Source of the DNA: an uncultured bacterium
GTDB lineage: Bacteria; Patescibacteriota; Dojkabacteria; J137
NCBI GenBank assembly: GCA_963700155.1
Contig: OY969472.1
Coordinates: 744,690-808,689, forward strand
Length of the DNA stretch: 64,000 nt
Reading direction: 5' to 3'
Part shown: positions 5,247-55,118 of the stretch, in pieces
Numbering within the stretch: the stretch's first letter is position 1
Layout of the letters: each line of letters starts with the position of its first letter
Notes under the pieces: model-generated
What the model was told of the DNA's origin: nothing
The model's database searches: none
What the model saw: only the letters and a program-made list of their open reading frames with translations
Made by a program: the position numbers and the translations under genes

Positions 5247-5987
5247 TTAACCTTCTAGATCAAGTCTTGAAGTTTCTTCACTTAATAATGCTTCTATACC
5301 TTGATCTGCTAGTTCTTTTGGTGTAAGGATTTTATCACCAATTTCATTCTTAGGTTTTAAAAATTCATTTTTTTGCTTTTCTTTCTTAGGAGACATTATA
5401 CTTAAAATAAAGTAAGTAAACATTAATAGTATATTAATTATAGATAGAGTTTTAATCGTCTCATCACTTGCATAAACATCATTTGAGAATCGAGTTTCTA
5501 TTTGATGTAAAGATAAATCAAGAGATTTAAAAGTTAGATTCATATAGCCAAAGTATTGATCTAGTAGTTGTTTATCGGATTCTTTTAATTGGTTATAAGT
5601 ATTGGTAATTATTTTATTTTGGATTTCACTTTTTATTATCGCCAATTGATTTGAGAGTAAATTAATAGACGTAAGTAAATCTATATTTTGAGATCTTGCG
5701 TATGTATTGTTTTCTTGATTAGTTAAACTTAATCCGTAGTCTAAAGTTTGTAAATACGTACTAAGCATGTCTGTGCTAGGAACTTCATGATTATTAAAAG
5801 ATTGGTTCATTTCATTGATATAATTCTTTAGTTCTTGAAATCTTTTTTGTGTTTCATTATATTTATCCAAGTTAATTCTTGACCCTAAATCTATAGATCC
5901 TATAAATGCTTCAATAATTATCATTATTACAGCTGAATAAAGAGTAACATTTTTTATACTTTGTTTTATGCTTTCGAATCTATTCAT
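5247..5987 (-). CDS. Hypothetical two-TM membrane protein, tandem paralog 1 of 4
   Basis: It is 246 aa. It has an N-terminal TM, a ~150 aa helical extracytoplasmic domain carrying a TLDY motif, a C-terminal TM, and a charged tail. Confidence 0.5.
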   Translation of the reverse strand: MNRFESIKQSIKNVTLYSAVIMIIIEAFIGSIDLGSRINLDKYNETQKRFQELKNYINEMNQSFNNHEVPSTDMLSTYLQTLDYGLSLTNQENNTYARSQNIDLLTSINLLSNQLAIIKSEIQNKIITNTYNQLKESDKQLLDQYFGYMNLTFKSLDLSLHQIETRFSNDVYASDETIKTLSIINILLMFTYFILSIMSPKKEKQKNEFLKPKNEIGDKILTPKELADQGIEALLSEETSRLDLEG

Positions 5988-5992
5988 GATTT

Positions 5993-6763
5993 TTAATTTT
6001 CTTGCTGATTTTGGTTTAATAAATCTTCTAGACTTGGTAAAGAGGACTCGTCAGTGATTTCTTCATCTTCATAATACATTGGAGGCATAAATTCGATTAT
6101 GTCTTCGATTTTCAATTTATCATTTCCATCTTCGGTTATATTTGCTCTTTTTTTTATTATAACTATTAGCCATAAAACAATATTAGCTGCGATAAGAGAA
6201 AGTCCAATTACAGTATATCTGTCAGAATAGTTTTGCTCTATATATTTCTGATTTGCTCTTGCAATAGCTTCATCACTAACAAAAGGAATTTTATTCAGTG
6301 TATTTCTTAAATCAGTAAAGAGTTTATTTATCTGAACTATTTCATCAGAATTAAAATTATTATTTGGCTGGTTAATTAAATCTTTTAGATTGTTTAAATA
6401 TTGATTGAGTAAGGTAAGTTGATGCATTATTTGCTCATCAAAGCTGTAGGAAAGGCTTAAGTTATAAACATCTTGCAGGCTATCATCTATAATTCTTTGA
6501 TAAGCTGTAACACCTTCTTCAGTATTATTTGAACCTTCGGAGACTTGATTCATAAAGTCATCAAGGATTCTTATGTGATCAGATAATTCAGTAGTTAATC
6601 TATGGTTATTTTCTAAGAAAGCAAGTCCTCTTTGCTTAGAACCCATATCACCTACAAAATAGAAATAAGTAATGATAGAAATTATTATAAATAAACTTTG
6701 TACTGGAGTAAGAAAACTACCTTTGTCAGATTCATATGTATTTTTCTTTAATTTTTCTGGCAT
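5993..6763 (-). CDS. Hypothetical two-TM membrane protein, tandem paralog 2 of 4 (acidic C-terminal tail)
   Basis: It is 256 aa with the same architecture as paralog 1. The tail is ...TEDGNDKLKIEDIIEF...EDEEITDESS. Confidence 0.5.
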   Translation of the reverse strand: MPEKLKKNTYESDKGSFLTPVQSLFIIISIITYFYFVGDMGSKQRGLAFLENNHRLTTELSDHIRILDDFMNQVSEGSNNTEEGVTAYQRIIDDSLQDVYNLSLSYSFDEQIMHQLTLLNQYLNNLKDLINQPNNNFNSDEIVQINKLFTDLRNTLNKIPFVSDEAIARANQKYIEQNYSDRYTVIGLSLIAANIVLWLIVIIKKRANITEDGNDKLKIEDIIEFMPPMYYEDEEITDESSLPSLEDLLNQNQQEN

Positions 6764-6780
6764 ATTATATTTAAATTTAA

Positions 6781-7533
6781 CTATAATTCTGCTTCAGTTT
6801 TATTATTCTTTAATAGTTCATCTAAACTTTCAAAAGTCTTGATGTCCTTTTCTTCGATTTCTCCATCATTATCTTGATCTATTTTTGCAATTGGTTCTTT
6901 AGTATTGTTTTTAAGTTTGGGAGGTTTAATAATACTTAGAATTATCCATAATATAGCGCATATGCTTGTAATAACTTCTCCAATCCTAAATAATATTGCA
7001 GCATTATCCATATCGTTATCATAATTTGCAATCGTTTTCTCTATAATTGCATTTAATTCTCCAAAATATTTATCAATATTAGTAAAGTTAATTTTTATCA
7101 ATTCTATTTGTTCAGAAGTTAAATTTGTTGATGTCTTTTCTAAGTTTACTGTGTATATTTGCTGAATTAAGGTTTGAACGTAGTCTAAACTGTTCAAAAT
7201 CTCATTTAAAGTTGCTGTGGGGTATATTGATTCAGAATTAGTATAAACACTTATTTTTGTAATATTATCATTAATTGCGCTTAAGTATATATTAAGTCTA
7301 CTCTGGCTAATTGTTCCGTTTTGGTCAAGAATATCAGATTCAATAGTATCTATATTTGAGTTTAGTGGAATAACTGTGCTCATTAAACTGTTAAGAGATT
7401 GTTTCTTTGTGTATTGCATTCCAGAGAAGATGGCCACTATAGCATCTAACACTGCAAGTAGTATTGTAATATAACCTAAGTATTTTCTTCTGAATATTTC
7501 AACCTTATATCTTGTAGAATCAAGTTGATCCAT
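6781..7533 (-). CDS. Hypothetical two-TM membrane protein, tandem paralog 3 of 4 (EF-hand-like loop DQDNDGEIEEKD in tail)
   Basis: It is 250 aa with the same architecture. The C-terminal loop DxDxDGxIxxxD is a near-canonical EF-hand loop. Confidence 0.5.
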   Translation of the reverse strand: MDQLDSTRYKVEIFRRKYLGYITILLAVLDAIVAIFSGMQYTKKQSLNSLMSTVIPLNSNIDTIESDILDQNGTISQSRLNIYLSAINDNITKISVYTNSESIYPTATLNEILNSLDYVQTLIQQIYTVNLEKTSTNLTSEQIELIKINFTNIDKYFGELNAIIEKTIANYDNDMDNAAILFRIGEVITSICAILWIILSIIKPPKLKNNTKEPIAKIDQDNDGEIEEKDIKTFESLDELLKNNKTEAEL

Positions 7534-7616
7534 AATTTAAATGATTAAATTTATGTCATGATTATACAATTATTCTGGAAATTATTAGAAAATAAATAAA
7601 AAGTTTAAGAGTAATC

Positions 7617-8342
7617 TTAACATTCGTTCCTACTTAGTAATTTTGCTTCTTCGATTGATAATTCACCGTCATCATCCAATTCTAAACTTTTTAATTGGTT
7701 TAATTCGATTTCATCATTCTTTCTTTTTCTTCTATTCCCTGCAGCCAAGCCAATTACATTGGTTATACTTAAGATCAGTCCGATAATAGATAGTACAAGA
7801 GTTGTTAGTCCAGCAATATAATCAATATTTTTCATGTCTATTTGGATACCATTTTCTTTTTGTTCCAATACTTGATAAATATCATTAAAAAGCTTGTCTA
7901 GATAATTGAAATAAGTCCTTGCAGCATCTAAGTCATCTTGAGTTAAACTAGACAGTTCTGAAGAAGAAAGTTTTGATAATTCTTCTAAATTATCCCTAAT
8001 ATTGGGAATATTATTTTTAATAGTTTCTAAACTTTGAGATATGTCATCATTACTAACTTGTTTGAATAAAGAATCAAGTGAATCTAAGGTGCTTTGGTAA
8101 AGTGAAAAAGTTGATGGTTGAAGATTTCCTCTATCTAAAAGATCTATCCTAAGAGCATTTACAGTTTCTTGAATTGGTTGCACACTCTTTTTTTGTTTTA
8201 AGGTGGATTCTAAGTTTTGATGTTCTACAAATTGTGAGGTTCCAGCAACTCCATCTATAATTCCTGTTAAAAGTATTAGTATCCATAAGAAACTCTCAAT
8301 ATTTTGTATAAGTTTTGGTTTCTCAATATTATTTTCTGGCAT
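7617..8342 (-). CDS. Hypothetical two-TM membrane protein, tandem paralog 4 of 4 (EF-hand-like loop ELDDDGELSIEE in tail)
   Basis: It is 241 aa with the same architecture. The C-terminal ExDxDGxLxxxE loop is EF-hand-like. Confidence 0.5.
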   Translation of the reverse strand: MPENNIEKPKLIQNIESFLWILILLTGIIDGVAGTSQFVEHQNLESTLKQKKSVQPIQETVNALRIDLLDRGNLQPSTFSLYQSTLDSLDSLFKQVSNDDISQSLETIKNNIPNIRDNLEELSKLSSSELSSLTQDDLDAARTYFNYLDKLFNDIYQVLEQKENGIQIDMKNIDYIAGLTTLVLSIIGLILSITNVIGLAAGNRRKRKNDEIELNQLKSLELDDDGELSIEEAKLLSRNEC

Positions 8343-8361
8343 TTTGTTTATCTAAAATATA

Positions 8362-10371
8362 TTACTCAAAGAGTTCAATTTTTTTAATGCCATGATTATA
8401 CAACCTTTCTGCAAATTTTTTACTTTTTTTTATAAGTTCAAGATTATCAAGTTTTGCAACTTTTAGTTTTGGAATTCCACTTTGCTTTGTGCCATAAATT
8501 TCACCTGGGCCGCGAAGCTGAAGGTCGTACTCTGCAATTTTGAGACCATCATTGCTTGAAGATAAATATTTTAGTCGTTCTAAAGCTGAGCGGCTGACAT
8601 CATCTGAATAGAATAAGAAGCACCAGCTTTGTATGTCGCTTCTTCCTACTCTCCCTCGAATTTGGTGAAGCTGTGCAAGTCCAAATCTTTCTGAACTTTC
8701 TATTACCATTACAGTTGCATTTGGAACGTCAATACCAACTTCTATAACCGAAGTTGATACGAGTATATCGTATTTATGTTCAAGAAATTCCTTCATTATT
8801 GCTGACTTTTCTTGTTCTTTCATCTTTCCGTGAAGAAGAGCGATTTTTCGCTTGCGAAAAATCGCTTGTAAGTGTTTAAAAGTCTCTTCAGCAGACTTGG
8901 CTTCTAGAATTTCTGACTCACTAATCAATGGACATATCCAATAGACTTGCTCACCATCTTTTATTTTTTGATCAATCCATTTATAAGAATCTTCTCTTTT
9001 TTCAGGAGGAACTAGATGTGTATTTATTGGAAGCCTTCCTTTTGGCTTAGTATTTATAAAACTTATTGAAACATCTCCAAAAAAAGCTTGCGCTATTGTC
9101 CTTGGAATTGGCGTTGCAGTCATATTAATAAAATGAGGATAGTATTTATCTTTAAAAATGGCTTCAAAAGGCTCTAAAAGCTCTTCTCTTTGCTGAACTC
9201 CAAACTTATGCTGCTCATCTACAATAACCATTCCCAAATCTTCTATAAGGTCTTTTTTGCGAGCTAAAACTGCTGAAGTTCCTATCAAGATATCATTAGA
9301 TTCGGCTTTTTTATTATCTGAAGTTACTAATTCAATTCCAATATCAAAATCTTTAAGTAAATTTGAAAATGTCAAAAAATGCTGCTTTGCCAGGATAGTT
9401 GTTGGAGCAAGAACTACACTTTGCATATTATTCATTGCCATTATCATTGTAGCTACAACTGCAACTATAGTTTTACCACTTCCAACATCACCTTGAATTA
9501 ATTCATTTAATAAATCACCTTTTGAAATTATGTTTTCGATATTTTCAATTACTTTATTCTGATCTTCTGTAAGTTTAAAAGGCAGAGAGCGGAAAAATTT
9601 ATTCAATTGAACCTGCATCGTTGGTACAGAAATATCAAACTTTGGAGCATCGAGTTTTCCGCTCTCTGCCCTTCTTTTCATTAACTTAATTTGAATAGCT
9701 ATTAATTCATAAAGTGATAAAAGTTCATTATATTTTTTTAGATCTTCAAAATTTTCTGGGAAATGTAGAAAATATATAGCTTTTCTTAAATTATCAGCTT
9801 TGACTCCTATCTCTTCTAACTCATTAGGAATTTCTAGTTGATTCATATTATCAACAAGATATTTAATTCTGTTTCGGAACCATTTTTTTGAAACACCTTG
9901 AGTTAAAGCATATTCAGGTGTAATTCTTGCTAGATGTACTAATTCTCTTGTACTCAAAACTTCTTCAAAAAGTACAGGAAAGAATTGAAATTTACCAACT
10001 TTGCTTTTTCGAAGTTTCCCAGAAAATATAAATTCTTTTTCTGGCTTTATTACATCCTTTAAATATGTCTGGTTGAACCAAGTTATGCTGATTTCACCTG
10101 TATTATCATGTACTTTAGCTTCTTGTAATGTTTTATGAGACCTTAAATATCCATTTTTAAAAGTATCTATCTTGACTCGAATTTGAAATGTATTTTCAAA
10201 ATCATGGTTATAAATTAAATCCTTTATTAAGGTAATAATTGATGTGTCAACGTATTTAGTGGGGAAATAAGTCAATAAATCTTTGACAGTGTAGATTTCA
10301 AGCTTTTCTAAATGTTTTGCATAAGCACCTTTGATTTGTGGCAGTACTGTTACTGAATCTTCAAGTTTCAT
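8362..10371 (-). CDS. recG: ATP-dependent DNA helicase RecG
   Basis: It is 669 aa with Walker A GDVGSGKT, a DEQHKFGV DEAH box, and an N-terminal wedge domain. Confidence 0.9.
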   Translation of the reverse strand: MKLEDSVTVLPQIKGAYAKHLEKLEIYTVKDLLTYFPTKYVDTSIITLIKDLIYNHDFENTFQIRVKIDTFKNGYLRSHKTLQEAKVHDNTGEISITWFNQTYLKDVIKPEKEFIFSGKLRKSKVGKFQFFPVLFEEVLSTRELVHLARITPEYALTQGVSKKWFRNRIKYLVDNMNQLEIPNELEEIGVKADNLRKAIYFLHFPENFEDLKKYNELLSLYELIAIQIKLMKRRAESGKLDAPKFDISVPTMQVQLNKFFRSLPFKLTEDQNKVIENIENIISKGDLLNELIQGDVGSGKTIVAVVATMIMAMNNMQSVVLAPTTILAKQHFLTFSNLLKDFDIGIELVTSDNKKAESNDILIGTSAVLARKKDLIEDLGMVIVDEQHKFGVQQREELLEPFEAIFKDKYYPHFINMTATPIPRTIAQAFFGDVSISFINTKPKGRLPINTHLVPPEKREDSYKWIDQKIKDGEQVYWICPLISESEILEAKSAEETFKHLQAIFRKRKIALLHGKMKEQEKSAIMKEFLEHKYDILVSTSVIEVGIDVPNATVMVIESSERFGLAQLHQIRGRVGRSDIQSWCFLFYSDDVSRSALERLKYLSSSNDGLKIAEYDLQLRGPGEIYGTKQSGIPKLKVAKLDNLELIKKSKKFAERLYNHGIKKIELFE

Positions 10372-18540: not shown

Positions 18541-19106
18541 TCCTTACCCTCATCATTTTTATACTTGCCTATTTCTTTAAAATCGTTACGCATGTAAAAT
18601 TTAATAGCGTTATAATTATCACTAAATACTCCACCCCATAAGATAATCCTTTGTTGCCCTAACTTTTTAGCAATCTCTTTTATATTTGGGAAAATCATAC
18701 TAGCAAGACCTGTTCCTTGAAATTTATCAGCAACACAAGGTCCAAACCTACAATCTTCTCCATGATGTAATTCAATTCCATAATCTTTGAATCTTTCTAA
18801 ATCGTTTTTAGGAATATCCATGCTGAACTCAAATAACCCAATTACTTCTTCCTTAAAATCAGCAATAAATCTTATCTTGTCATACTTTGCTATATCGTCG
18901 CACATTTGTTGTGCAGTTTTCTGATCAAAAGAGTCGAGTTTGTAAAATTCTCTAGTTGAAGTTGAAAGATTAGTTAGAAACTGAGTAAGTATGTTTACAT
19001 CTTTACTTTCTAAAGGTCGAAGAACAGCATTTTGCCCATCACTTAAAGTTATAGAGAATTGTAAAATATTTGGATTTTGAGATATGTCCTTTATTGAATA
19101 GGCCAT
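18507..19106 (-). CDS. GNAT-family N-acetyltransferase
   Basis: It has motif A FQGTGLASMIF and the C-terminal AIKFYMRNDF. It is 199 aa. Confidence 0.6.
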   Translation of the reverse strand: MAYSIKDISQNPNILQFSITLSDGQNAVLRPLESKDVNILTQFLTNLSTSTREFYKLDSFDQKTAQQMCDDIAKYDKIRFIADFKEEVIGLFEFSMDIPKNDLERFKDYGIELHHGEDCRFGPCVADKFQGTGLASMIFPNIKEIAKKLGQQRIILWGGVFSDNYNAIKFYMRNDFKEIGKYKNDEGKECIDMILNLLS

Positions 19107-19122
19107 TTTTAGAATTTTAAAA

Positions 19123-19207
19123 CGGAGGGAGTGAGATTCGAACTCACGGACCCTTGCGGGTCACTCGTTTTCAAGACGAGCACGATCGGCCACTCTGTCA
19201 TCCCTCC
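19123..19207 (-). tRNA. tRNA-Ser (anticodon TGA), type II with long variable arm; no encoded CCA
   Basis: I folded the cloverleaf by hand. The acceptor is GGAGGGA/TCCCTCC, the anticodon loop is CTTGAAA, the variable arm is TGACCCGCAAGGGTCCG, and the T-loop is TTCGAAT. Confidence 0.8.
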
Positions 19208-19257
19208 TTTGTGCTTATGTATTATACTAAGAAATCGTTGTATCGACTAGATTTTTT

Positions 19258-25647: not shown

Positions 25648-26063
25648 TTTTCAAGATTGATATAAAGGTAAAATTAATATGTCACTCTAGATTATAAATT
25701 GAATATGGTTTTTATTAAAGTCTTAAGATTTGATAAGTAATATCCTTTTAAAATTGTTCATTTTCTTAATCAGTAAAATAGTTCTATATACTCAAAGTGA
25801 TTATTGGTATGTTATGTTTATGTATCCAAGGAGTATTAAGTTGTTTATCGTAAATGCTATTAAAAATCAATATAGAACATTAAAAATTGATTTTTTAGAT
25901 GTTATTAGTTACAATCATAATAGAGCCTACGCTATCCTCAAAGTTTGGCGACATAGCTAACTCAGGCTCATGTAGGCTTCATGTGAGGTAAAATTCTTGG
26001 GTTTTCTCACTTCCAAGATTGAACTCGCTCTTTAACATATCATTCGTAATTAAATATTGTTTT

Positions 26064-26108
26064 GGTCTCCTCTATTTGTATTTTTTTAAGTATACATAGA
26101 GGAGATCA
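26064..26108 (+). promoter_or_regulatory. 12-bp-stem hairpin (GGTCTCCTCTAT...ATAGAGGAGATC, one G-U) 22 nt upstream of the acquired GT2 gene; RBS GGGAGGG follows
   Basis: I read the inverted repeat directly. It lies at the AT-rich to GC-rich transition. Confidence 0.3.
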
Positions 26109-26129
26109 AAACATTAGGGAGGGAATCCA

Positions 26130-27329
26130 ATGGCAGTAAGACTGATGGAACCCCAAATTCCTTCTCTGAGGGAGTTTGAGGAAGATGAACTTTGGGACTT
26201 GCTCTTCTATGGGCAAGCTCCAAAAAAACCTATAACACCTATCGTAGACTGTATGCTTCCTGCTCATGACGAGGAAGCAAACATCGAGGCAACCGTAGAG
26301 AGTTTGTTTTCACAAACTCTACAACCAAACCGTGTAATTGTTGCTGCAGATAACTGCAGCGACAATACTATCCCGATCCTTGAAAGATTGGTAGATAAAT
26401 ATCGTGGGCGGCTCATTTATTTTGAGACCGTTGATAATTCTGCCAAAAAAGCTGGAGCGCTGAATCAAGCGCTCCAGTACCTTTCACATGAGGCGCAGTA
26501 TGTGCTTCAGATGGATGCAGACACAAAGTTAAGCCCAAACTTGATAGAAGAAGCTATTAAAGAGCTTCGAGCTAATCACAAGTTGGGTGGTGTTTGTTCC
26601 AGGTTCGGAGTATTCCCCTACAAGGGGAAGAATCCATGGCATTGGTTTCTCTGGAAGTTACAGGAAATGGAGTACGCTACAAGCGACTCTAGCCGAGTTG
26701 AAGGCCTTGGGGGTACGAAAGTCCTCTCAGGGGCCGTCGTAGTATTCTGGAGATTTGCTCTTGAGCAAGTGTCGTGGGAACATGGCCTTAGTGAACCAGA
26801 ACAGAAAGATAAGGGAAATGTGTGGTCTGAGAGCACAATTGTCGAAGACTATTCATTGACCCTTGACCTGAAGGAACTTGGATGGAAAGTCCAAGCCGGG
26901 ATGGGCATGATGTCGTGGACCGATACCATGCTGACGTTGTGGGATCTCTGGGATCAGAGGTTCCGCTGGCATTACGGGACTTGGCTCGAGTTGGAGCGAC
27001 GCGGGTGGAATAAGACCACCCGTCACGATATTCTCGAGCTTTGTTTGCATTACTTCATATTGGTGTGCCTTGTGATTTTCTTAGGCACTTTGGTCGCGAT
27101 GGTGATAATTGGGATCCCGATTCAGTTCAACGCGATTGGGCTTTCGGTATTGCTCGTCGCGTGGGCAAATAGGTTGTACCGGTTCTCATATATGAGAGAG
27201 CCAAAATGGTACGATCTATTGATCGCGATCATTTTAATTCCTGAAGAAGTGTATTCTATCTACAGGAATATCAACCTGACCGTGGCTCTTATCCGGAGCT
27301 TGAGGACGAAGTCTCCGCAGAAGTGGTAA
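26130..27329 (+). CDS. Processive family-2 glycosyltransferase (PgaC/NodC/cellulose-synthase-like polysaccharide synthase) in a high-GC acquired segment
   Basis: It has DxD (QMDADTK), the Q(R/Q)xRW motif (DQRFRWHYG), and C-terminal TM helices. It is 399 aa. Local GC is about 50%, against a background of about 30%. Confidence 0.7.
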   Translation: MAVRLMEPQIPSLREFEEDELWDLLFYGQAPKKPITPIVDCMLPAHDEEANIEATVESLFSQTLQPNRVIVAADNCSDNTIPILERLVDKYRGRLIYFETVDNSAKKAGALNQALQYLSHEAQYVLQMDADTKLSPNLIEEAIKELRANHKLGGVCSRFGVFPYKGKNPWHWFLWKLQEMEYATSDSSRVEGLGGTKVLSGAVVVFWRFALEQVSWEHGLSEPEQKDKGNVWSESTIVEDYSLTLDLKELGWKVQAGMGMMSWTDTMLTLWDLWDQRFRWHYGTWLELERRGWNKTTRHDILELCLHYFILVCLVIFLGTLVAMVIIGIPIQFNAIGLSVLLVAWANRLYRFSYMREPKWYDLLIAIILIPEEVYSIYRNINLTVALIRSLRTKSPQKW

Positions 27330-27358
27330 ATGTTCGATAACAGGGAGGTATAACTACC

Positions 27359-27733
27359 ATGAACTACGATCCACCTTTCTTGCCGGTAACCGGAGCAGCT
27401 TTTGCCACTGGTGCTGGCGCATACTTACAATGGACGTGGCCAGTGATCCTGGCTGCGGCTGTTGTGTCGTTTGTAATTCTCGCATTTGGGATGATGCTCT
27501 TGCGACGGAATGAAAGCCGGCTGCTCAAATCCGGTGTCAAGGTTCGTCGCAGTACCCTCCCATACATGATCGGCGGAGTCATCGGCATTGTCGTGGGTAT
27601 CGTCGGCGCGGCGCTTGAATTACCCGCACTTTTCGTGATCCCAGCTATCCTGGTCTCGGTGATCCTCGTCGCGGCGCTGCTTGGGGGCTTTCGCAGCAAT
27701 TTCCCTAAACAGCAGCTCGCCCAAGTCGAATGA
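27359..27733 (+). CDS. Small polytopic membrane protein (124 aa) co-transferred with the GT2 synthase
   Basis: It has several hydrophobic helices and is rich in Gly and Ala. It is GC-rich and is followed by a strong terminator. Confidence 0.5.
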   Translation: MNYDPPFLPVTGAAFATGAGAYLQWTWPVILAAAVVSFVILAFGMMLLRRNESRLLKSGVKVRRSTLPYMIGGVIGIVVGIVGAALELPALFVIPAILVSVILVAALLGGFRSNFPKQQLAQVE

Positions 27734-27743
27734 TGTGTTAGAA

Positions 27744-27773
27744 GGGGGCGGTCCGACGTGTCGGACCGCCCCC
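27744..27773 (+). terminator. GC-rich rho-independent terminator-like hairpin GGGGGCGGTCCGAC..GTCGGACCGCCCCC
   Basis: This is a perfect 14-bp arm (at most 12 bp paired with a real loop). It lies downstream of the 124-aa gene at the GC-to-AT boundary. Confidence 0.6.
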
Positions 27774-27843
27774 TAAAACTTTCTTTTATAAATTCAAAAA
27801 TTTCTACTCTACTATAATCTTGAAATAGGTCGAATATTTTTAT

Positions 27844-29481
27844 TTAATTCTCTTGAGTTGCTTCTGGAGTGCTGAGTATTGCTTGATTATTCCCAATATC
27901 AAATTCAAAAATTGGAACCATTCTAGCTTGAAGTAATGGTGCAATATTTGGATCTACAGGTTCGTCTGCATAAGGCTCAGCACAGTAAAATCCAAGCAAA
28001 TCTCTTACAGGGTCAAGTGGCGGCCCATCATAATCTGAAAACTCGAGGATATCAACCGGCCCTCTTAAACCAGCAGCTTCATCTATAAAAGCTTGATTCA
28101 AAGCTTGGGTTTGTTGTGGGCTGATATAAAATAATCCTATTAATTTACCGTGTTCAGTATTCCCATTTTGAGTTATCGTGAATGGTGCATCTTTATAATA
28201 ATCTCGCCTTATCTTTCCTTCTGCTGAAGTAACATTAGTCCAGGCTAATTGGCTTCCAGTTTCTTCTACGTCTGCTCTTAATGGATCTGCAGGAAATTGG
28301 GACCCGTTTGCTAAATATCCTGAGTGAATAGTTTGAACTAAAACTCCATTATATTGCATCCAAACTGGATTGTCTTGTGCAAAAGGATCTCCAGCTAAAA
28401 AATTATCAGTAGGATTCATTTGTCTAGGATAAATTAGTAAATCAAATTCATTTCTGTTCCAAACTTGAGCAGGCTTTTCTATAACTAATTCAGTTAATGG
28501 ACCTTTCTCAATACCAATAGTCCCAAAGTTAATTGAACCTATATGGAAAGGCACAAAATTTTCTACTTCAAATCTTGGTATGATTGATAAAGTTGTTGGT
28601 CTATTCATTCCAAATAGATTCCAGAATTGTATATCTGGAACTGTAAGATTTGGATCTCTTCTACGATATAATCCAATAAATACATCTCTAAAAGCATTAT
28701 TTAATTGGATAATAAACTCAGGGTTCATAAAGTCTTCTGGAGTATATTTAACTTTACCTCCTGTTAGTATATCTGATGCTAAATTACTCAATATTTGGAA
28801 AGCTTGATCAACTGTAAGGTTAGTTCCAACTCCCTGGATATAATAATCATACGAATTTCCATTAATTCCATGTTCTTCTTTATATGCTTGTTGAATAATT
28901 TCTAAAAAGGCTCTAAAGTTACCGTAAGTGATTTCAGAATATAATTGTTCAGGAGTTTGTATACCTGCAACTTCATTTAAATAGCCATTATTATATAACC
29001 CTGCAGCAACAGCATTATATTGCAACGATTGCAGAAATTCTTCTGCAACTAAACTTTGAGTTACATTACTTAAATGATCCTTCCCAAAAGATATACTGCT
29101 AAACTGAACAGTACCATCTCCGCTCACCTCCATCATCGTAGATCCCCAGCTTCCTCCTCTATTGTGCTCAATATCATAAGTAATTTCATCACTTGTAATA
29201 ATGGGTATTTGGTCAATAAATGCTTCAATTTGAGCATCGCTCATTTCAGGGTGAAATAGCTTGACACTATTATGTATAAAGCTTCTAATTTCAGGATTAT
29301 TAAATGCGTAATTGATTGAGGGATATTGATTATGTGGAATGATAATTGCATCTGGTGATAAAACAATATTTATAGGTGTTGGATCAGCTGGTAAATTTGA
29401 TTGTGCATCAATAGATTGTTGTGAACCAATCCCAAGCATTGATGCTGTTATTGCCAGTGCCGCTAAACTCTTTCTATTCAT
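27844..29481 (-). CDS. Secreted hypothetical protein (545 aa, signal peptide)
   Basis: It has an N-terminal signal peptide (MNRKSLAALAITASMLGIG) and no recognisable catalytic motif. Confidence 0.5.
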   Translation of the reverse strand: MNRKSLAALAITASMLGIGSQQSIDAQSNLPADPTPINIVLSPDAIIIPHNQYPSINYAFNNPEIRSFIHNSVKLFHPEMSDAQIEAFIDQIPIITSDEITYDIEHNRGGSWGSTMMEVSGDGTVQFSSISFGKDHLSNVTQSLVAEEFLQSLQYNAVAAGLYNNGYLNEVAGIQTPEQLYSEITYGNFRAFLEIIQQAYKEEHGINGNSYDYYIQGVGTNLTVDQAFQILSNLASDILTGGKVKYTPEDFMNPEFIIQLNNAFRDVFIGLYRRRDPNLTVPDIQFWNLFGMNRPTTLSIIPRFEVENFVPFHIGSINFGTIGIEKGPLTELVIEKPAQVWNRNEFDLLIYPRQMNPTDNFLAGDPFAQDNPVWMQYNGVLVQTIHSGYLANGSQFPADPLRADVEETGSQLAWTNVTSAEGKIRRDYYKDAPFTITQNGNTEHGKLIGLFYISPQQTQALNQAFIDEAAGLRGPVDILEFSDYDGPPLDPVRDLLGFYCAEPYADEPVDPNIAPLLQARMVPIFEFDIGNNQAILSTPEATQEN

Positions 29482-29574
29482 AGATGTAATAATAACTTAT
29501 AAATATGAATTTGAAAAGAAGAATTGCTATTTGTACGGTGTATCAAGCTTTAAGAGAATATACCCAGTGAATAA

Positions 29575-33737: not shown

Positions 33738-35024
33738 TTATCTGCCCTTCTCTATCTTTGCACCAAGTCGTCTTAAGACCTGAATTATTTCAGGGAATCT
33801 TCTATAAAGTATATCTGCATTGTCAATTACAGTTGTACCTGATGCAGATAAAGCTGCAAGAACAAGAGCATGTGTACATTGCAGAATTGTTGAAGAATTG
33901 ATTTGTGTCCCTTTAAAACTACTTTCTCCAAGTGTAATAATTTGATTAGGGTTGGTCATTGTAAACTTTGCTTGCATCTTGAATAACTCCGTATATAGCT
34001 CGATAAGCTGTACTTCATACATATTTGAGTAAACTCTTATCGAACCACCGGCTTTTAATGCTAAAACTAAGGCTTGTGGAATTAAATCCACTGGAAATCC
34101 AGGCCATGGTTCATCTTTAATCTTATCCATATCGCCCTTTAAATTAGGTTTAGCGATTAATTTTTGCTTTCCCGGTACAAAGATATCCTCATCTCTTATT
34201 TCGACCTTTAAATTGAGTTTAGCGAAGTTATTAATAATTTGGGTCATATGTTGAGGAATTGCATTCTTAATTGTAATTTCTCCACCTGTAACTGCAGCAG
34301 CTACAATTAAACCTCCAATATCAATATGATCAGGTGGAACAGTCCATTCCCCTCCACTTAAACTCTCAACACCATCAATAATTAGTCGATTTGTTCCAAT
34401 TCCTTGAATTTGTGCCCCTAAATAATTTAAGAAATTGCATAAATCTTGAGTATGAGGTTCACAAGCAGCATTATAAATTATAGTTCTTCCCTTAGCTTTT
34501 ACAGCTGCTAAAATTAGGTTTTCTGTTCCTGTTACAGAAGCTTCTAATAGCCAAACATTTTCATTCCCTTTTAATCCTGGAGTTGATAGTTTATATCCAT
34601 CATTTTTATCTAAGTGTACATTTAATTCTTGAAGACCTTGAAACATTGCATCAAGTGGGCGATTCCCGAGCTTGCATCCCCCTCCATCTTTAATGGAAGC
34701 TCTTCCAAACCTCTCCAAAAGAGGACCTAAAAATATAAAAGTTGCTCTTTCTTTTGAAGCTAAAACCTCGTCAATATCTGGAGTTTTTATTGTTGTTCCA
34801 TCTAATCTTATACTGTTTCCTTCTAAGTATGATACTTTACCTCCAAGTTGTTTAAAAACATGGAGCATTACCCTAACAGAACTACTTTTAGGGACATTGT
34901 GAATAGTCACAGGTTCATCCGCTAAAACACATGCAGGAATTAACTTTACAATAGAATTCTTGTTTGGCATCGGTTCAACTTCGCCATGCAAATCATAACC
35001 TCCTGTTATTTTTAATGAAGACAT
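33738..35024 (-). CDS. murA: UDP-N-acetylglucosamine 1-carboxyvinyltransferase MurA
   Basis: It has the EPSP-synthase fold with a Cys-containing catalytic loop GGGCKLGNRPLD. It is 428 aa. Confidence 0.85.
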   Translation of the reverse strand: MSSLKITGGYDLHGEVEPMPNKNSIVKLIPACVLADEPVTIHNVPKSSSVRVMLHVFKQLGGKVSYLEGNSIRLDGTTIKTPDIDEVLASKERATFIFLGPLLERFGRASIKDGGGCKLGNRPLDAMFQGLQELNVHLDKNDGYKLSTPGLKGNENVWLLEASVTGTENLILAAVKAKGRTIIYNAACEPHTQDLCNFLNYLGAQIQGIGTNRLIIDGVESLSGGEWTVPPDHIDIGGLIVAAAVTGGEITIKNAIPQHMTQIINNFAKLNLKVEIRDEDIFVPGKQKLIAKPNLKGDMDKIKDEPWPGFPVDLIPQALVLALKAGGSIRVYSNMYEVQLIELYTELFKMQAKFTMTNPNQIITLGESSFKGTQINSSTILQCTHALVLAALSASGTTVIDNADILYRRFPEIIQVLRRLGAKIEKGR

Positions 35025-35076: not shown

Positions 35077-35319
35077 TTAACCTTCAAGATCTATGTCACC
35101 TAATAAGGTTGTTACATCAAAACCTTTTCCAGTGCCATATTCAACCAGTTTGATTTCATCATCATCATCAGGTGTAGATTCGATCTGGGGAAGATAACCC
35201 TCTCGGATCAATTCTAGAAATTCAGATTGCTCTTCATCAGTAATTTTTCGTGAAGATATCCTTTGATTTAGAAAGTTAATTCGTGCTTGTTTTGTTGTAG
35301 GATCACTATCTAAGCTCAT
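35077..35319 (-). CDS. Hypothetical acidic protein (80 aa)
   Basis: This is an ORF with no recognisable motif. Confidence 0.4.
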   Translation of the reverse strand: MSLDSDPTTKQARINFLNQRISSRKITDEEQSEFLELIREGYLPQIESTPDDDDEIKLVEYGTGKGFDVTTLLGDIDLEG

Positions 35320-35336
35320 TATATTGGTAGTAATAA

Positions 35337-35413
35337 TGGTGAGCGCTGAGGGATTCGAACCCCCGACCCTCTCGGTGTAAACGAGATGCTCTAGCCAGCT
35401 GAGCTAAGCGCTC
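35337..35413 (-). tRNA. tRNA-Val (anticodon TAC) with encoded CCA
   Basis: I folded the cloverleaf by hand. The acceptor is GAGCGCT/AGCGCTC, the anticodon stem is TCTCG/CGAGA with loop TTTACAC, and the T-loop is TTCGAAT. The 3' end carries CCA. Confidence 0.8.
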
Positions 35414-35542
35414 GATAACAAATACTACAGATTTTTAAAGCTTTAACTCTAGCTCCCATAAAGGGACTAATATCTTCTTTTATTCGACTACACTTCGCTT
35501 GTCTCACAAAGAATCTCTTGAGCAGCTGAGCTAAGCGCTCGA
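35414..35542 (-). repeat. tRNA-linked conserved element, copy A (~128 nt) immediately upstream of tRNA-Val(TAC); its distal end duplicates tRNA-Val nt 1-19
   Basis: It is homologous to 54935..55063, sharing long identical runs such as TTTTTAAAGCT, GGGACTAA and ACAAAGAATCTCT. The segment AGCTGAGCTAAGCGCTCG duplicates the tRNA 5' end. Confidence 0.55.
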
Positions 35543-35574
35543 AAAACGAGCACTGTATTATATCTTATTTTCTT

Positions 35575-35617
35575 ATAATGGTGAATAGTAATTATTTGTA
35601 ATCCCTCAGCGCTCACC
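35575..35617. repeat. Two short fragments of the tRNA-Val(TAC) 3' end: direct copy ATAATGGTGA (35575-35584) and 18-nt inverted copy AATCCCTCAGCGCTCACC (35600-35617)
   Basis: The inverted copy is the exact reverse complement of 35338-35355. Read as a scar, this would be an att-site-like remnant of past integration. Confidence 0.4.
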
Positions 35618-35621
35618 AAAA

Positions 35622-36311
35622 CTATTTAATTTCAAAAGTATTTGCAATATTAAACAATACTTCTTTATTAACACTGTCTGTAGAATTAGTAATTGTTAAA
35701 ATATAAGTTTGGTCCCTTTTTGTATCTGGAAAATAATATTGATCCTGTTCGATATTTATATTTCCTTTTGATGCATTCCATAAAACATGGCAAGCATCAT
35801 TACTTCCATATGTCCCTAATGAATAATTTAACGAGGTTTTATCAACAATATAACCTTCATCTGTTAAAGTTGAAGTAGCATTTTGGCCAAGACTTAAACA
35901 ATTAGTATAACTTAGATCGAATGAGCTGTTTGTTATTATAATACTAGCGTTATCATTCCCATTATTTGTATTTTTTTCTTTAAGTGATAAAAGAACAGAT
36001 GAATAATTATTTGAAGTTACAGAATCTTTTAAATTTAGTTTAGAATTATCATATTTGAAAGTAAAATCTATTGAATAATCACCAGTATAATTTACCTCAT
36101 TTGTATTTGTATCTGTAGAATTATTTAAATCTTGTTGAGTTGATTCATTTGAATTTTGTGAACAAACTCCACTCGTTGGATTTGCTGAAGGGCCTTTATA
36201 GAAACATGTACCATCTATTTCAAAATACCCAAAAAAGAATAAGATTCCACCTAAAATTATCATAAAACATAGGAGCAATAAACAACCTCCAACAAGAATC
36301 TTTTTCTTCAT
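35622..36311 (-). CDS. Secreted/anchored Asn/Ser/Thr-rich low-complexity protein (229 aa)
   Basis: It has an N-terminal TM followed by polar low-complexity sequence. Confidence 0.45.
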   Translation of the reverse strand: MKKKILVGGCLLLLCFMIILGGILFFFGYFEIDGTCFYKGPSANPTSGVCSQNSNESTQQDLNNSTDTNTNEVNYTGDYSIDFTFKYDNSKLNLKDSVTSNNYSSVLLSLKEKNTNNGNDNASIIITNSSFDLSYTNCLSLGQNATSTLTDEGYIVDKTSLNYSLGTYGSNDACHVLWNASKGNINIEQDQYYFPDTKRDQTYILTITNSTDSVNKEVLFNIANTFEIK

Positions 36312-52654: not shown

Positions 52655-53179
52655 TTAAAGAATCTTAAGGGTTGAAAATTCTTTTTCTATAATCCATTTA
52701 TGATCATCTTCGTTTTCAAGTTTTTTGAGAATAGTAATGTTGTCAAATGGTAATGTGAATTTTTCTTTTTCGAATTGGTTTAAATAATTTTCAATATCTT
52801 CAATTTGCTCAGGTTTTGCACGTATGGTTATTGTTAAATGAAAATTTCTATCTGGTAAATCAAATTCATCCCATTGAAGCCAATCTATTTCCTTTAATAT
52901 TTTGAAAAATTTGAGATAGATTGTTTTAGTTCTATCATTTAATTTGACATCAAGGAAAAAAACTCGTTGTCTAAAGTTGCCAATTCCACCAATTTCTACC
53001 TCTGCTCCTTCGAAATTAGTTTCTTTTACAAACTTTTCAATGAGTGCTTCAATCGGTTTGATGTTATCAGTGTAAATATTATCTTTTAAAGTTATATGGC
53101 TTGGTGTTTGAATTGCGAAGATACTAAACTTTTCTGAAACTTTACCTTTAACTCGAAACCCGATTATGAATCGTTCCAT
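52655..53179 (-). CDS. 2H phosphoesterase superfamily protein (LigT/ThpR-like)
   Basis: It has two H-x-T-x motifs (SHITL and FHLTITI) about 90 aa apart. It is 174 aa. Confidence 0.45.
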   Translation of the reverse strand: MERFIIGFRVKGKVSEKFSIFAIQTPSHITLKDNIYTDNIKPIEALIEKFVKETNFEGAEVEIGGIGNFRQRVFFLDVKLNDRTKTIYLKFFKILKEIDWLQWDEFDLPDRNFHLTITIRAKPEQIEDIENYLNQFEKEKFTLPFDNITILKKLENEDDHKWIIEKEFSTLKIL

Positions 53180-54763: not shown

Positions 54764-54861
54764 CTCTCATTTTTAACCGATTGATATTATTATATCATGA
54801 ATATATAAGGTATAGCTACACTCCAATCGAGGGTTGTAATTATTCTCGGTACTAATAAAAG

Positions 54862-54934
54862 TGCCAGGGGGCAGACTCGGACTGCCGACACCTCGCTCTT
54901 CAGGCGAGTGCTCTACCAGCTGAGCTACCCTAGC
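54862..54934 (-). tRNA. tRNA-Phe (anticodon GAA) with atypical T-loop (T54-C55-C56)
   Basis: I folded the cloverleaf by hand. The acceptor is GCTAGGG/CCCTGGC (one G-U), the anticodon loop is CTGAAGA, and the T-arm is GGCAG-TCCGAGT-CTGCC. No CCA is encoded. Confidence 0.65.
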
Positions 54935-55063
54935 ACAATGAAAGTTACTGGTACTTTAAGTTTTTAAAGCTCTACTCCCACAACGGGACTAAGATCTTCT
55001 TTTGCTCGACTTCACTTGGTTTGTCTTGCAAAGAATCTCTCGAGCAGCTTCGCTACCCTAGCA
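54935..55063 (-). repeat. tRNA-linked conserved element, copy B (~128 nt) immediately upstream of tRNA-Phe(GAA); distal end duplicates tRNA-Phe nt 1-19 (2 mismatches)
   Basis: It is homologous to 35414..35542. The segment GCTACCCTAGCA duplicates the tRNA 5' end. Confidence 0.55.
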
Positions 55064-55118
55064 TAAAAGTGAGCAGGATAATTATAAATGATGAAGCACT
55101 AAACAGCAAGGCTTTATC

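Follow-up and report, generated by a model that had tools for sequence, protein, structure and literature searches.

Two tRNA genes in a 64-kb stretch of a Candidatus Dojkabacteria (CPR) genome, which we call the window, are each preceded by a partial copy of themselves, and a structured insert of 69 nt, termed CORE, lies exactly between G18 and G19 of the D-loop within each copy. The partial copies stand upstream of tRNA-Val(UAC) and tRNA-Phe(GAA), derive in both cases from the adjoining tRNA, and run from about −5 to +25. CORE is a conserved RNA structure on one strand, a conclusion well supported by compensatory substitutions. We tentatively regard it, at somewhat less than even confidence, as a small mobile insertion, non-autonomous and directed at TG^G in tRNA D-loops, that survives only beside an intact tRNA copy and is co-transcribed as leader RNA.

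A 69-nt insert interrupts a partial copy of the neighbouring tRNA

On the tRNA strand, each module is arranged in the order promoter-like site, nt 1-18 of the tRNA, CORE, nt 19-25, spacer and intact tRNA. The tRNA genes were called with ARAGORN and Rfam RF00005. In window coordinates, the two loci comprise:

35337-35413, minus strand: intact tRNA-Val(TAC), UAC anticodon (ARAGORN; Rfam RF00005, 67.9 bits)
35414-35446, minus strand: AT-rich spacer, 33 nt, separating the interrupted copy from intact tRNA-Val (alignment)
35447-35453, minus strand: B*, a copy of tRNA-Val nt 19-25, GCTAGAG (sequence reading and alignment)
35454-35522, minus strand: CORE copy 1, 69 nt, the structured insert between the copies of G18 and G19 (covariance model, 82.3 bits; fold and covariation)
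35523-35545, minus strand: upstream copy A of tRNA-Val, −5 to +18, with nt 1-18 at 35523-35540, exact (repeat search and alignment)
35557-35585, minus strand: sigma-70-like promoter TTCACC-17-TATAAT, 10/12 matches, upstream of the module and tRNA-Val (promoter scan)
35600-35618, no strand assigned: perfect inverted copy of the tRNA-Val(TAC) 3' end, 19 nt (repeat search; partner 35337-35355, 100% complementary)
54861 or 54862 to 54934, minus strand: intact tRNA-Phe(GAA) (ARAGORN; Rfam)
54935-54968, minus strand: AT-rich spacer of 34 nt at the tRNA-Phe locus (alignment)
54969-54975, minus strand: B*, a copy of tRNA-Phe nt 19-25, GTAGAGC (sequence reading and alignment)
54976-55044, minus strand: CORE copy 2, 69 nt, 58/69 identical to copy 1 (covariance model, 77.8 bits)
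55045-55066, minus strand: upstream copy A of tRNA-Phe, −4 to +18, with nt 1-18 at 55045-55062, 16/18 matching (repeat search and alignment)
55081-55086, minus strand: TATAAT hexamer 18 nt upstream of the Phe module (read by eye)

An earlier note on this DNA had called attention to both loci, and its observation is real, although the anatomy is not as it described. The similarity it saw between 35414-35542 and 54935-55063 survives proper alignment (score 110; shuffle mean −28, maximum 14). Its estimate that the two are three-quarters identical is borne out by 97 of 133 alignment columns (73%), but the equal overall length is partly coincidental because only the 69-nt CORE is conserved, the spacer poorly so. 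Instead of the conserved unit of ~110-128 nt that had been proposed, we find a 69-nt CORE, then the 7-nt copy of nt 19-25, then a 33-34-nt spacer. Between loci the spacer sequence is poorly conserved, with a length of ~30-34 nt in most.

Each element does begin, as the note had it, with a copy of the 5' end of its own tRNA. The tRNA-Val duplicate matches at 18/18 positions, and the repeat extends 5 nt into the leader (TTTTCGAGCGCTTAGCTCAGCTG vs. TTATCGAGCGCTTAGCTCAGCTG); the tRNA-Phe duplicate matches at 16/18, with TC changed to GA in the D arm. The resulting direct repeat is a 22-23-nt copy (tRNA −4/−5 to +18) that flanks CORE, nt 19-25 and the spacer. Together with the upstream copy, B* completes the D arm around CORE, and the rule that this right flank comes from the same tRNA also holds for Phe, Leu and Ser at other loci. 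The whole insert (~104 nt) has no ORF. A covariance model run over the window returned two copies only (82 and 78 bits; next best 13.5 bits), and the tRNA-Ser (19123) and tRNA-Val(GAC) (29574) genes of the window are without the element.

The inverted copy of the tRNA-Val 3' end, previously given as 18 nt, is genuine and measures 19 nt (35337-35355 with 35600-35618, 100%). It lies directly beyond the stop codon that ends ORF 35622-36311, a short way upstream of the promoter-like site, and may be a rearrangement scar or a long-range stem. A second '3'-end fragment' reported at the Val locus is a 7-nt leader segment, GTGCTCG, which is able to pair with the duplicate and is too short to be significant.

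CORE folds as a rod with two tandem G·A loops and a hairpin

CORE is built, in order, of CUC, P1a, a GA/GA loop, P1b, P1c, a second GA/GA loop, the P2 hairpin, AG and the P3 hairpin. The covariation across copies that the earlier note had suggested looking for is present: P1 is 92.6% paired, with both-side changes in 5/9 pairs, a level reached by 0/500 shuffles, and in a model-fitted alignment both-side changes occur in 12/15 pairs. When each copy was folded alone, 11/12 adopted the same minimum-energy architecture, and the sense strand was more stable than the antisense in 12/12. The linker, ..GAUCUUAGUCCC.., is nearly invariant among copies (UUAGUCC invariant); P2 and P3 sequences are genome-specific.

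CORE is tied to tRNA-derived sequence and patchy among CPR genomes

The comparison set comprised 13 CORE copies in seven genomes, namely the window and six other CPR assemblies, which contribute ten full copies and one cut by the end of its locus. Outside the window, CORE is hosted by tRNA-Val, Phe, Leu, Ser and others, and none of the 13 copies lies away from tRNA-derived sequence. In every D-loop module with its tRNA in view, the left flank is nt 1-17/19 and the right flank nt 19-25 of the neighbouring tRNA, so verified for window Val and Phe, L093 Val and Phe, L100 Phe, L097 Leu(TAA) (right flank GCAGAC) and L091 Ser(CGA) (right flank GTTGAAAGG vs. GTCGAATGG in the tRNA). The sole part constant across loci is CORE. 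The bounds of the duplicate coincide in all D-loop loci with structural boundaries of the tRNA, at ~+1 and ~+25. The left flank ends in TG in 12/13 copies; just these 2 nt are common, and there is no duplication around CORE.

An automated scan of 49 tRNAs in CPR loci found an upstream copy of nt 1-18 at six, all of them CORE-bearing, and at no CORE-free tRNA. Reading by eye added a seventh, at the L100 tRNA-Phe, which a 21-nt indel divides. The only CORE-free partial 5' duplicate in the CPR loci examined is a D-arm fragment in L083.

Empty sites, which the earlier note had also suggested looking for, do occur at the same tRNAs in closer relatives (L006, L083, L084, L106-L118 and the tRNA-Val of L100). 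L093 carries CORE though its MutL is only ~42% identical to that of the window, and between genomes at this distance CORE is ~80% conserved. Likeness is greater among the copies of one genome than among those that different genomes carry at the same tRNA. L096 and L088 contain tandem and nested copies. In L006 the insertion point differs: the acceptor 3' strand of tRNA-Val(GAC) is interrupted at ACTG^CTCA, and a second CORE copy lies within a pseudo 3' fragment.

No gene was shared near CORE across loci, where conserved housekeeping synteny alone was seen. The pattern AGATTCTTTGN{32,42}TTAGTCCCNNNNNGGGA had no match in viral contigs or in the genome contigs of a collection that lacks the source genome; seven matches from a different scan of genome contigs, which did recover further copies, were chance matches in coding sequence, five labelled 'Bacilli' and two others. 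All 76 matches to AGAGATTCTTTGNNAGACAA in metagenome contigs were likewise due to chance, and two further scans of viral contigs gave nothing real.

A mobile insertion at tRNA D-loops is the favoured reading

On the reading we favour, CORE would be a small, non-coding, structured insertion element specific to CPR that enters tRNA-derived DNA within TG^G, as a rule at U17-G18^G19 in the D-loop. Promoter to tRNA would be transcribed as a single precursor, and RNase P, cutting where the intact tRNA begins, would trim off the module as leader RNA. With the duplicate lying between the promoter and the intact copy, the essential tRNA would be kept. CORE would then be DNA or RNA of a selfish or neutral kind, carried from one tRNA locus or genome to another by a trans-acting factor whose gene lies elsewhere, and its insertions would persist solely where a partial duplication spares an intact tRNA copy.

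The earlier note had listed a miniature tRNA-targeting integrative element as its first option, and the patchy presence in relatives, the tie to tRNAs and the intact tRNA agree with it. The anatomy departs from its suggestion that the element rebuilds the tRNA's 5' portion: what is conserved has been inserted into a truncated 5' copy, separating G18 from G19, and both flanks derive from the target tRNA. Such an arrangement is not the product of a classical attP/attB crossover, and no integrase gene is nearby. Nearly all window ORFs of at least 100 aa were surveyed, and none encodes a transposase, integrase, reverse transcriptase or RNA-guided nuclease; Pfam, NCBIfam and PHROGs scans of the unannotated window ORFs gave no mobile-element or nuclease domain. 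We take as signs of mobility the empty sites in relatives, the CORE of the distant L093, the greater likeness of copies within a genome, the tandem and nested copies, the second insertion point in L006 and the TG at the left flank. The missing mobility genes, the lack of a shared neighbouring gene, the confinement of all 13 copies to tRNA-derived sequence and the near-absence of CORE-free duplicates count against it.

CORE resembles MITEs and REP/REPIN-type repeats in being small, structured, non-coding and patchy among relatives. It differs from them in its strict tie to tRNAs, in the 30-nt partial gene duplication, and in lacking terminal inverted repeats or a fixed-length duplication. The ends of CORE, CTCAAGAG... 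and ...GGGA, are not inverted repeats (the P1 repeat is internal and is followed by the P3 hairpin), and its flanks are contiguous target, nt 18 against nt 19. Also against mobility, no known transposition mechanism gives an insert inside the first copy of a tandem partial duplication. The fixed ends of the duplicate and the near-constant spacer look designed or RNA-templated rather than random. The ~80% conservation of CORE at ~42% MutL identity is explained by selection for function as well as by recent transfer.

A functional leader is compatible with the promoter-like sites and the predicted fold

The third option of the earlier note, a structured leader RNA, is compatible with our results, in that the best promoter-like site lies upstream, no terminator-like site lies between, the fold covaries and the sense strand folds better. 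In a fuller form of this idea, the module would act in cis as a functional leader, or be set free from the precursor as a small RNA; it would comprise the acceptor 5' strand and D arm of the tRNA with a protein- or ligand-binding rod in the D-loop. As a leader, its upstream copy would compete with the tRNA 5' strand for the acceptor 3' strand and so control the share of precursor foldable for RNase P; as a released product, it would be a stable RNA, freed by RNase P, that serves a function of its own. We consider this unlikely, while giving it real weight.

Judging by the upstream promoter-like sites, module and tRNA appear to be co-transcribed. The strongest sigma-70-like match (10-11/12) precedes the module in four loci (window Val, L093, L100 and L097), and the scan placed neither a promoter nor a terminator in the stretch from module to tRNA. 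The TATAAT at window Phe was uncalled by the promoter scan and has a poor −35 element; the leader there resembles the native tRNA-Phe promoter and leader of a relative, L084. The spacer itself was considered as a diverged duplicate of a native promoter or leader, and local alignments were no better than shuffles in 5/6 loci (L097, p = 0.03).

In the minimum-energy fold of the whole precursor, the acceptor stem uses the upstream copy in 6/6 loci, and this fold is 4-7.5 kcal/mol more stable than the fold with the tRNA's own 5' strand, a thermodynamic preference that favours a leader but disregards co-transcriptional folding and is partly generic. Where the copy has decayed in its D-arm part (window Phe and L100 Phe), its acceptor part has stayed unchanged, which favours a leader, but in window Phe and L100 the D stem is broken. 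The exact end of the copy at the D-stem boundary (+25), which lets the D stem close around CORE, argues in the same favourable direction, as do the strong covariation, the near-invariant linker and the high conservation of CORE across distant genomes.

Against a leader function, the closest relatives lack the element at these tRNAs, and L100 lacks it at tRNA-Val(TAC), where L093 has it; it is thus dispensable. The variable set of host tRNAs, the tandem, nested and degenerate copies, and the genome-specific P2 and P3 sequences also speak against it.

Less probable readings: RNA-level insertion, guide RNAs and integration scars

A further reading, which we hold improbable, is that CORE is either an RNA-level mobile element, inserted at G18/G19 of a tRNA or pre-tRNA and copied to DNA with the 5' third, or a small guide-plus-scaffold RNA in which nt 1-18 and CORE lead an unknown protein to tRNA genes. 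Insertion into RNA followed by copy-back would explain why the duplicate ends at ~+1 and +25, which are boundaries of an RNA molecule and not of a DNA feature.

More specifically, tRNA nt 1-18 plus CORE could be a natural guide-plus-scaffold RNA, comparable to the IscB omega-RNA or a single-guide RNA, left by a non-autonomous element of IS200/IS605 type; an RNA-guided nuclease or nuclease-dead binder from elsewhere would recognise the tRNA gene, for homing or repression. We think this quite improbable. Like IS200/IS605 derivatives (palindrome-associated elements) and the stand-alone omega-RNA copies of OMEGA systems, CORE is short, non-coding and hairpin-rich, inserts without duplication beside a short motif, and is present variably and in several copies per genome. 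Stand-alone omega-RNA copies of IS200/605 elements have no target-site duplication and a short motif at the left flank; CORE likewise has no duplication around it, but shares only the 2 nt TG at its left flank where such elements insert 3' of a conserved 4-5-nt target. In IscB-type RNAs the DNA on the 5' side is the guide, whose counterpart would be tRNA nt 1-18: a target-derived segment of 17-19 nt does abut the 5' end of the conserved scaffold, itself a long interrupted duplex followed by a conserved linker and hairpin. What comes after the target in the intact gene is also missing from the occupied copy, an absence that would allow self/non-self discrimination.

However, neither the 64 kb nor the surroundings of any other copy (8-kb loci) yielded an IscB, TnpB, Cas9 or TnpA domain, and there is no Rfam match to omega-RNA, HEARO or IS605-orfB. 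Known IscB and IsrB scaffolds are far longer than the 69 nt of CORE. The −10 hexamer of the promoter-like site lies anywhere from ~18 to 66 nt ahead of nt 1, so that no 5' end of a guide is defined, and the bases after the target differ between tRNAs (GCT, GTA, GCA and GTC), so that there is no common adjacent motif. An active nuclease would, moreover, cut the essential intact tRNA gene ~57 bp downstream. IS200/IS605 and omega-RNA elements do not produce a duplicated tRNA 5' third beside an intact tRNA, whereas CORE always lies in one.

Least probable of all, in our estimate, is that the repeats are scars of integrase-mediated integration and decay of larger elements with an attachment site in the D-loop, CORE being a conserved arm that does not move itself. 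Integrase-mediated insertion at tRNA genes, including that of integrase-less cis-mobilisable elements, likewise leaves foreign DNA between direct repeats of partial tRNA with the complete tRNA kept. The repeat is usually the 3' part of the tRNA, however, and here it is the 5' part; here, too, the insert is ~104 nt without an integrase gene, and the same core has contiguous flanks (nt 18 | nt 19) at Val, Phe, Leu and Ser. The same D-loop breakpoint (G18-C20) does bound truncated 3' copies of tRNA-Val(TAC) in L083 and L106, large serine recombinase genes adjoin the L116 tRNA-Phe, and synteny around CORE-site tRNAs is rearranged between genomes; the inverted 19-nt tRNA-Val fragment of the window would fit as well. 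But an attP × attB crossover would put nt 19-25 straight after nt 1-18, and these follow CORE instead; the window also has no recombinase gene, as an integrative element of the tyrosine or serine recombinase type would carry. Independent decay events could not produce the same 69 nt at four or more different tRNAs with both flanks matching. No integrase gene lies near any CORE copy, the compensatory changes in P1 and P2 argue for a single-stranded fold over a double-stranded protein site, and the automated scan showed no upstream 5' copies without CORE.

CORE matches no described family

The statement of the earlier note that this is not a described family stands within Rfam 15 and the searchable literature, where we found no description of the element. 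Over the whole window, Rfam 15, with its riboswitch, T-box, ribozyme, omega-RNA/HEARO/IS605-orfB, retron msr and small-RNA models, gave only tRNA matches at gathering thresholds, and at E ≤ 10 nothing covered the element in 35300-35700.

Its second option, a SINE or retron, is not supported: the tRNA part matches the neighbouring tRNA and not a single ancestral one, and so differs at Val, Phe, Leu and Ser, the 64 kb hold no reverse-transcriptase gene or domain, and Rfam gives no match. Archaeal non-canonical tRNA introns and split tRNA genes (D-loop, 25/26) resemble the modules in having a D-loop insert and boundaries at tRNA junctions (+25/26), but the host here is bacterial and no bulge-helix-bulge is seen at the junctions by inspection. 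The 3' end of CORE is locked in P3, and from the junctions and folds no 4-bp helix with 3-nt bulges can be drawn; splicing is not needed, since the interrupted copy is truncated and an intact gene follows. Group I introns of Patescibacteria share the phylum and the choice of tRNA genes as target, lie in the anticodon loop, mostly at 35/36, are detected with RF00028 and interrupt the only functional gene (PMC13011429). CORE has no RF00028 match, is too small at 69 nt and has an intact tRNA downstream.

Smaller motifs fared no better. A specifier-like pairing of the P2 loop with the anticodon (GUGUA) suits the window tRNA-Val and fails for Phe and L093. A hammerhead-like UGAG...CGAA core lacks equivalents of the essential C3, G5 and A6 and has no Rfam match. 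The G·A loops are symmetric (2x2) without the 3-nt bulge of a K-turn or box C/D motif, TIGR-Tas arrays have 36-nt units with 9-nt spacers, and the resemblance of UAGUCC to SRP RNA or the Cas9 nexus is taken as coincidence, since the pairing partners differ.

Discussion

CPR bacteria have tiny genomes with single-copy tRNA genes, so an element that targets the D-loop must avoid killing its host. CORE appears to spare the host in a way that has not been described, in that what it interrupts is a 25-nt copy of the tRNA 5' end, carried in the leader of a gene that is itself intact. If CORE is mobile, G18^G19 is a new target site, and it implies a mechanism of insertion plus duplication and an enzyme not yet known. 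If it is functional, it would be the first leader to mimic the 5' third of a tRNA in order to control that tRNA's own maturation. The new RNA structure, with its two tandem G·A loops and UUAGUCC linker, can enter RNA family databases, and CORE modules account for pseudo-tRNA fragments able to confuse the annotation of CPR genomes.

Anatomy of the tRNA-associated modules

Two of the four tRNA genes in the window (G+C ~30%), all of which ARAGORN and Rfam place on the minus strand, are preceded by a module built around a conserved, folded insert of 69 nt (CORE). Read from the two window loci side by side with homologues of other genomes, the order in tRNA sense is a promoter-like site, tRNA positions ~−5 to +18, CORE, tRNA nt 19–25, a spacer and the complete tRNA.

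Features of the two module loci
33738–35024, MurA gene
35337–35413, minus strand, tRNA-Val(TAC) (ARAGORN, Rfam)
35414–35446, AT-rich spacer, Val locus
35447–35453, copy of tRNA nt 19–25, Val locus
35454–35522, CORE, Val locus
35523–35545, upstream copy of the tRNA 5' end, Val locus
54861–54934, minus strand, tRNA-Phe(GAA) (ARAGORN, Rfam)
54935–54968, AT-rich spacer, Phe locus
54969–54975, copy of tRNA nt 19–25, Phe locus
54976–55044, CORE, Phe locus
55045–55066, upstream copy of the tRNA 5' end, Phe locus

The earlier note described the two upstream stretches as alike, each opening with the 5' end of its own tRNA, and alignment bore this out: 97 of 133 columns are identical (score 110; shuffles, mean −28, maximum 14), and the opening matches the cognate tRNA at 18/18 positions for Val and 16/18 for Phe. 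A conserved element does lie upstream of these tRNAs, as that note had it, but the conserved unit is the 69-nt CORE (58/69 identical between Val and Phe) rather than ~110 nt. The window holds CORE copies at Val and Phe only, as pattern searches, nhmmer and a covariance-model search run unfiltered all showed (82 and 78 bits in the last search; next match, 13.5 bits).

The right flank of each CORE is nt 19–25 of the same tRNA (GCTAGAG for Val, GTAGAGC for Phe); in other genomes it is GCAGAC for Leu and, for Ser, GTTGAAAGG versus GTCGAATGG in the Ser tRNA itself. The CORE thus interrupts a truncated 5' third of its cognate tRNA precisely at the G18–G19 step. Because the two flanks join into unbroken target sequence specific to that tRNA, the CORE is an insertion. 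The partial tRNA duplication that houses it begins near +1, with the 5' repeat reaching 4–5 nt into the leader at the window loci, and stops at the D-stem boundary (+25), ~30–34 nt from the intact gene (3 nt in L091, where the module precedes tRNA-Ser).

The insert has a common fold

Folded alone, 11 of 12 COREs adopted a common shape. A CUC linker is followed by P1a (AAGA/UCUU), a 2x2 GA/GA loop, P1b (UUCUU/AAGAA), a bulged A, P1c, a second GA/GA loop (UGAG...CGAA), a variable hairpin P2, an AG linker and a hairpin P3 (UCCC-loop-GGGA). P1a occurs as AAGA/UCUU, GAGA/UCUU, AAAA/UUUU, AUGA/UCAU, AAGU/ACUU and AAAC/GUUU. In the MAFFT alignment P1 was paired at 92.6%, and covariation across copies, a check proposed at the outset, was evident: both sides had changed in 5/9 P1 pairs, a number equalled by 0/500 shuffles. 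A model-fitted alignment, which is biased in favour of the structure and contains three additional weak rows, gave both-side changes in 12/15 pairs. In 12/12 COREs the sense strand folded more stably than the antisense strand. This asymmetry, together with G·U pairs, indicates that the tRNA-sense strand is the folded one, which is most simply the transcript.

Empty sites and further copies in relatives

Syntenic loci were obtained through homologues of MurA, whose best-matching named relatives belong to Candidatus Dojkabacteria, a CPR (Patescibacteria) lineage. In L006, L083, L084 and L106–L118 (loci with 74–79% MurA identity), tRNA-Phe and tRNA-Val(TAC) are preceded only by a TATAAT box with a short leader, so the empty sites sought in relatives exist at both tRNAs. 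L006 (GCA_034680565.1) has instead two diverged COREs directly 3' of tRNA-Val(GAC). The first interrupts the acceptor 3' strand at ACTG^CTCA, where the CORE's own CTCA rebuilds the tRNA end; the second occupies the identical point of a pseudo 3' fragment. The COREs and this fragment fill the interval between tRNA-Val(GAC) and a ThrRS-like gene (18924–19250) and, if co-transcribed, would fall in that gene's 5' untranslated region. At the corresponding position, the window's tRNA-Val(GAC) has no CORE.

Genuine CORE copies in five more CPR assemblies came from a second scan of the genome collection, which used a pattern shared by three of four copies; scans of metagenome and viral collections found no genuine further copies.

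CORE-bearing loci of other CPR genomes
L093, before tRNA-Val(TAC) and before tRNA-Phe
L100, before tRNA-Phe, with a 21-nt insertion in its upstream copy
L097, before tRNA-Leu(TAA)
L091, before tRNA-Ser(CGA)
L096, a tandem pair of modules, of which the second is truncated by the end of the locus
L088, two COREs nested within one tRNA-like 5' segment, each preceded by ...TG

Both L093 and L100 share synteny with the window, yet their MutL is only ~42% identical to the window's, and the module at tRNA-Val(TAC) is present in L093 and absent in L100. CORE copies from the same genome are closer than copies at the same tRNA from different genomes. Of the 49 tRNAs across all the CPR loci examined, only CORE-bearing ones had an upstream copy of nt 1–18: an automated scan called six, and the seventh, tRNA-Phe of L100, was identified by eye on account of its indel. 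The CORE is real, reproduced in independent assemblies and structurally well supported.

L096, L097 and L100 are TPA assemblies labelled 'uncultured Candidatus Saccharibacteria'. L100 has synteny with Dojkabacteria-type loci, and its tRNA-Phe and tRNA-Val sequences are identical to those of L093. These labels may be unreliable, which makes the spread of the CORE across CPR classes uncertain. In L091, a degenerate, CORE-like stretch between a promoter-like TATAAT and the Ser module (1765–1830; TGAGCTAAGCGAACC...CATGAGCGTAGTCGAAGGACCTCA) resembles the inter-CORE stretch of L006 (GTATGAGGAGTCGAAGGATTCGATCC) and may be a decayed CORE copy (covariance model 12.8 bits, E about 1).

Other tRNA fragments and rearrangements

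The inverted tRNA-Val 3'-end copy reported earlier is real and perfect, although it is a 19-mer (35337–35355 versus 35600–35618) and not an 18-mer. It covers the tRNA from the T-loop to CCA and 2 nt beyond, and directly follows the stop codon of an ORF (35622–36311); the Phe locus has no counterpart. With read-through transcription it could form a 19-bp stem around promoter, module and tRNA-Val, or it could be a rearrangement scar with a T-loop breakpoint. The ORF belongs to a fast-evolving type of ~213–232 aa, lacking known domains, whose position next to tRNA-Val(TAC)/tRNA-Phe is conserved (L084, 8274–8915; L093, 1690–2343; L100, 5732–6388). The ancestral order was Phe, ORF, Val; the window's tRNA-Phe and module lie 19 kb from ORF and Val, so the cluster has been rearranged.

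L106 (JGI Ga0564463_00085), the nearest relative for which upstream sequence is available (MurA 79%), has a tandem array of four ~156-nt units downstream of tRNA-Val(TAC) (1640–2210) and a second full tRNA-Val(TAC) at 3253–3326. Each unit holds a truncated tRNA-Val(TAC) that starts at ~nt 20 and keeps the 3' end; its T arm carries a 26–55-nt hairpin-forming insert, and a conserved ~54-nt linker lies ahead of it. The breakpoint falls in the D-loop, as in the CORE modules, but the 3' part is retained instead of the 5' part, as in a mirror image.

No CORE was detected at the L083 locus (GCA_964393185.1). A D-arm fragment of tRNA-Val(TAC) (nt 7–24; 4093–4115), itself uninterrupted and flanked by TTGACA and TAGAGT, lies there 130 nt upstream of the gene, and a pseudo 3' part (nt ~19–76; 4550–4633) with a 20-nt hairpin insert in its T-loop stands between tRNA-Val(TAC) and tRNA-Phe.

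In L116 (Logan SRR26349714), judged against the otherwise near-identical contigs L114, L115 and L117, ~9 kb (432–9063) replaces tRNA-Val(TAC) and the adjoining 213-aa ORF. It encodes two large serine recombinases (641 and 626 aa), the second ending inside or beside tRNA-Phe, and looks like an element integrated at the tRNA cluster. In the window, ~3.9 kb (25648–29573; G+C 0.37 versus ~0.30) separates tRNA-Val(GAC) from the ThrRS-like gene, which adjoin in relatives. This stretch, which may be an island inserted at a tRNA 3' end, holds a 124-aa ORF, a family-2 glycosyltransferase and a 545-aa ORF (27844–29481) with no match in Pfam, NCBIfam or PHROGs.

Transcription and precursor folding

By consensus match only, the top sigma-70-like site at the Val locus (TTCACC-17-TATAAT, 35585 to 35557) is on the tRNA strand and precedes the module, as is true of the top sites of L093, L100 and L097; at these four loci no promoter or terminator was called in the stretch separating the module from its tRNA. 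A TATAAT, not called by the promoter scan, stands 18 nt upstream of the Phe module, whose leader is similar to the native tRNA-Phe leader of L084. A single precursor would then carry the module as its 5' leader, and RNase P would cut the module away. In minimum-energy folds of whole precursors, the acceptor stem was made by the upstream copy and not by the tRNA's own 5' strand at 6/6 loci, favoured by 4–7.5 kcal/mol. Competition between the two is possible in these models, which do not imply that it occurs.

Known systems and origin of the insert

The CORE had been thought to belong to no described family, and this agrees with Rfam (no match at gathering thresholds over the whole window, or at E ≤ 10 in 35300–35700) and with the searchable literature, in which we found no description of it. 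Among the nearest known systems, non-autonomous IS200/IS605 derivatives and stand-alone omega-RNAs resemble the CORE in part and probably differ from it in at least one defining trait. Partial likeness is also seen with MITE and REPIN repeats, with partial tRNA duplications left by integrases, with non-canonical introns and split tRNAs of Archaea, and with group I introns of Patescibacteria tRNA genes, yet for each of these at least one defining trait does not fit; the group I introns, recently catalogued, lie in the anticodon loop and were detected with RF00028 (PMC13011429). TIGR-Tas arrays, also present in CPR, are unrelated, differing in unit size and layout.

The patchy occurrence among relatives, the several target tRNAs, the within-genome likeness, the tandem, nested and degenerate copies, the second site type in L006 and the left flank ending in TG all point to the CORE being a mobile, non-autonomous element. 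We tentatively favour a selfish structured insertion borne in the leader. That the folded, presumably transcribed CORE is instead a functional leader or small RNA strikes us as rather unlikely. A guide-plus-scaffold RNA is improbable; Pfam searches of nearly all ORFs ≥100 aa, with NCBIfam and PHROGs for unannotated ORFs, found no transposase, integrase, reverse transcriptase or RNA-guided nuclease in the 64-kb window. RNase III (2751–3464) and a 2H/2'-5' RNA-ligase-like protein (52655–53179) are encoded there, and no CORE-adjacent gene is common to the loci beyond housekeeping synteny. Integrase scars are very improbable.

We know of no mechanism that accounts for insertion always within the first copy of a partial tRNA duplication. 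Classical target-site duplication would set the element between the copies, and an attP/attB crossover would set nt 19–25 directly 3' of nt 18, both unlike the arrangement seen; homologous recombination between loci, also rejected, would yield chimeric acceptor stems. The duplication occurs strictly together with the CORE, so either the insertion process makes it or only such arrangements survive, the latter since placing an insert in the D-loop of a tRNA gene that has no second copy would be lethal. The coincidence of the duplication ends with the boundaries of the tRNA molecule is a hint of an RNA intermediate, or of selection acting on the RNA. There is a meaningful chance that the CORE is new in kind, beyond a small non-autonomous insertion or a structured leader.
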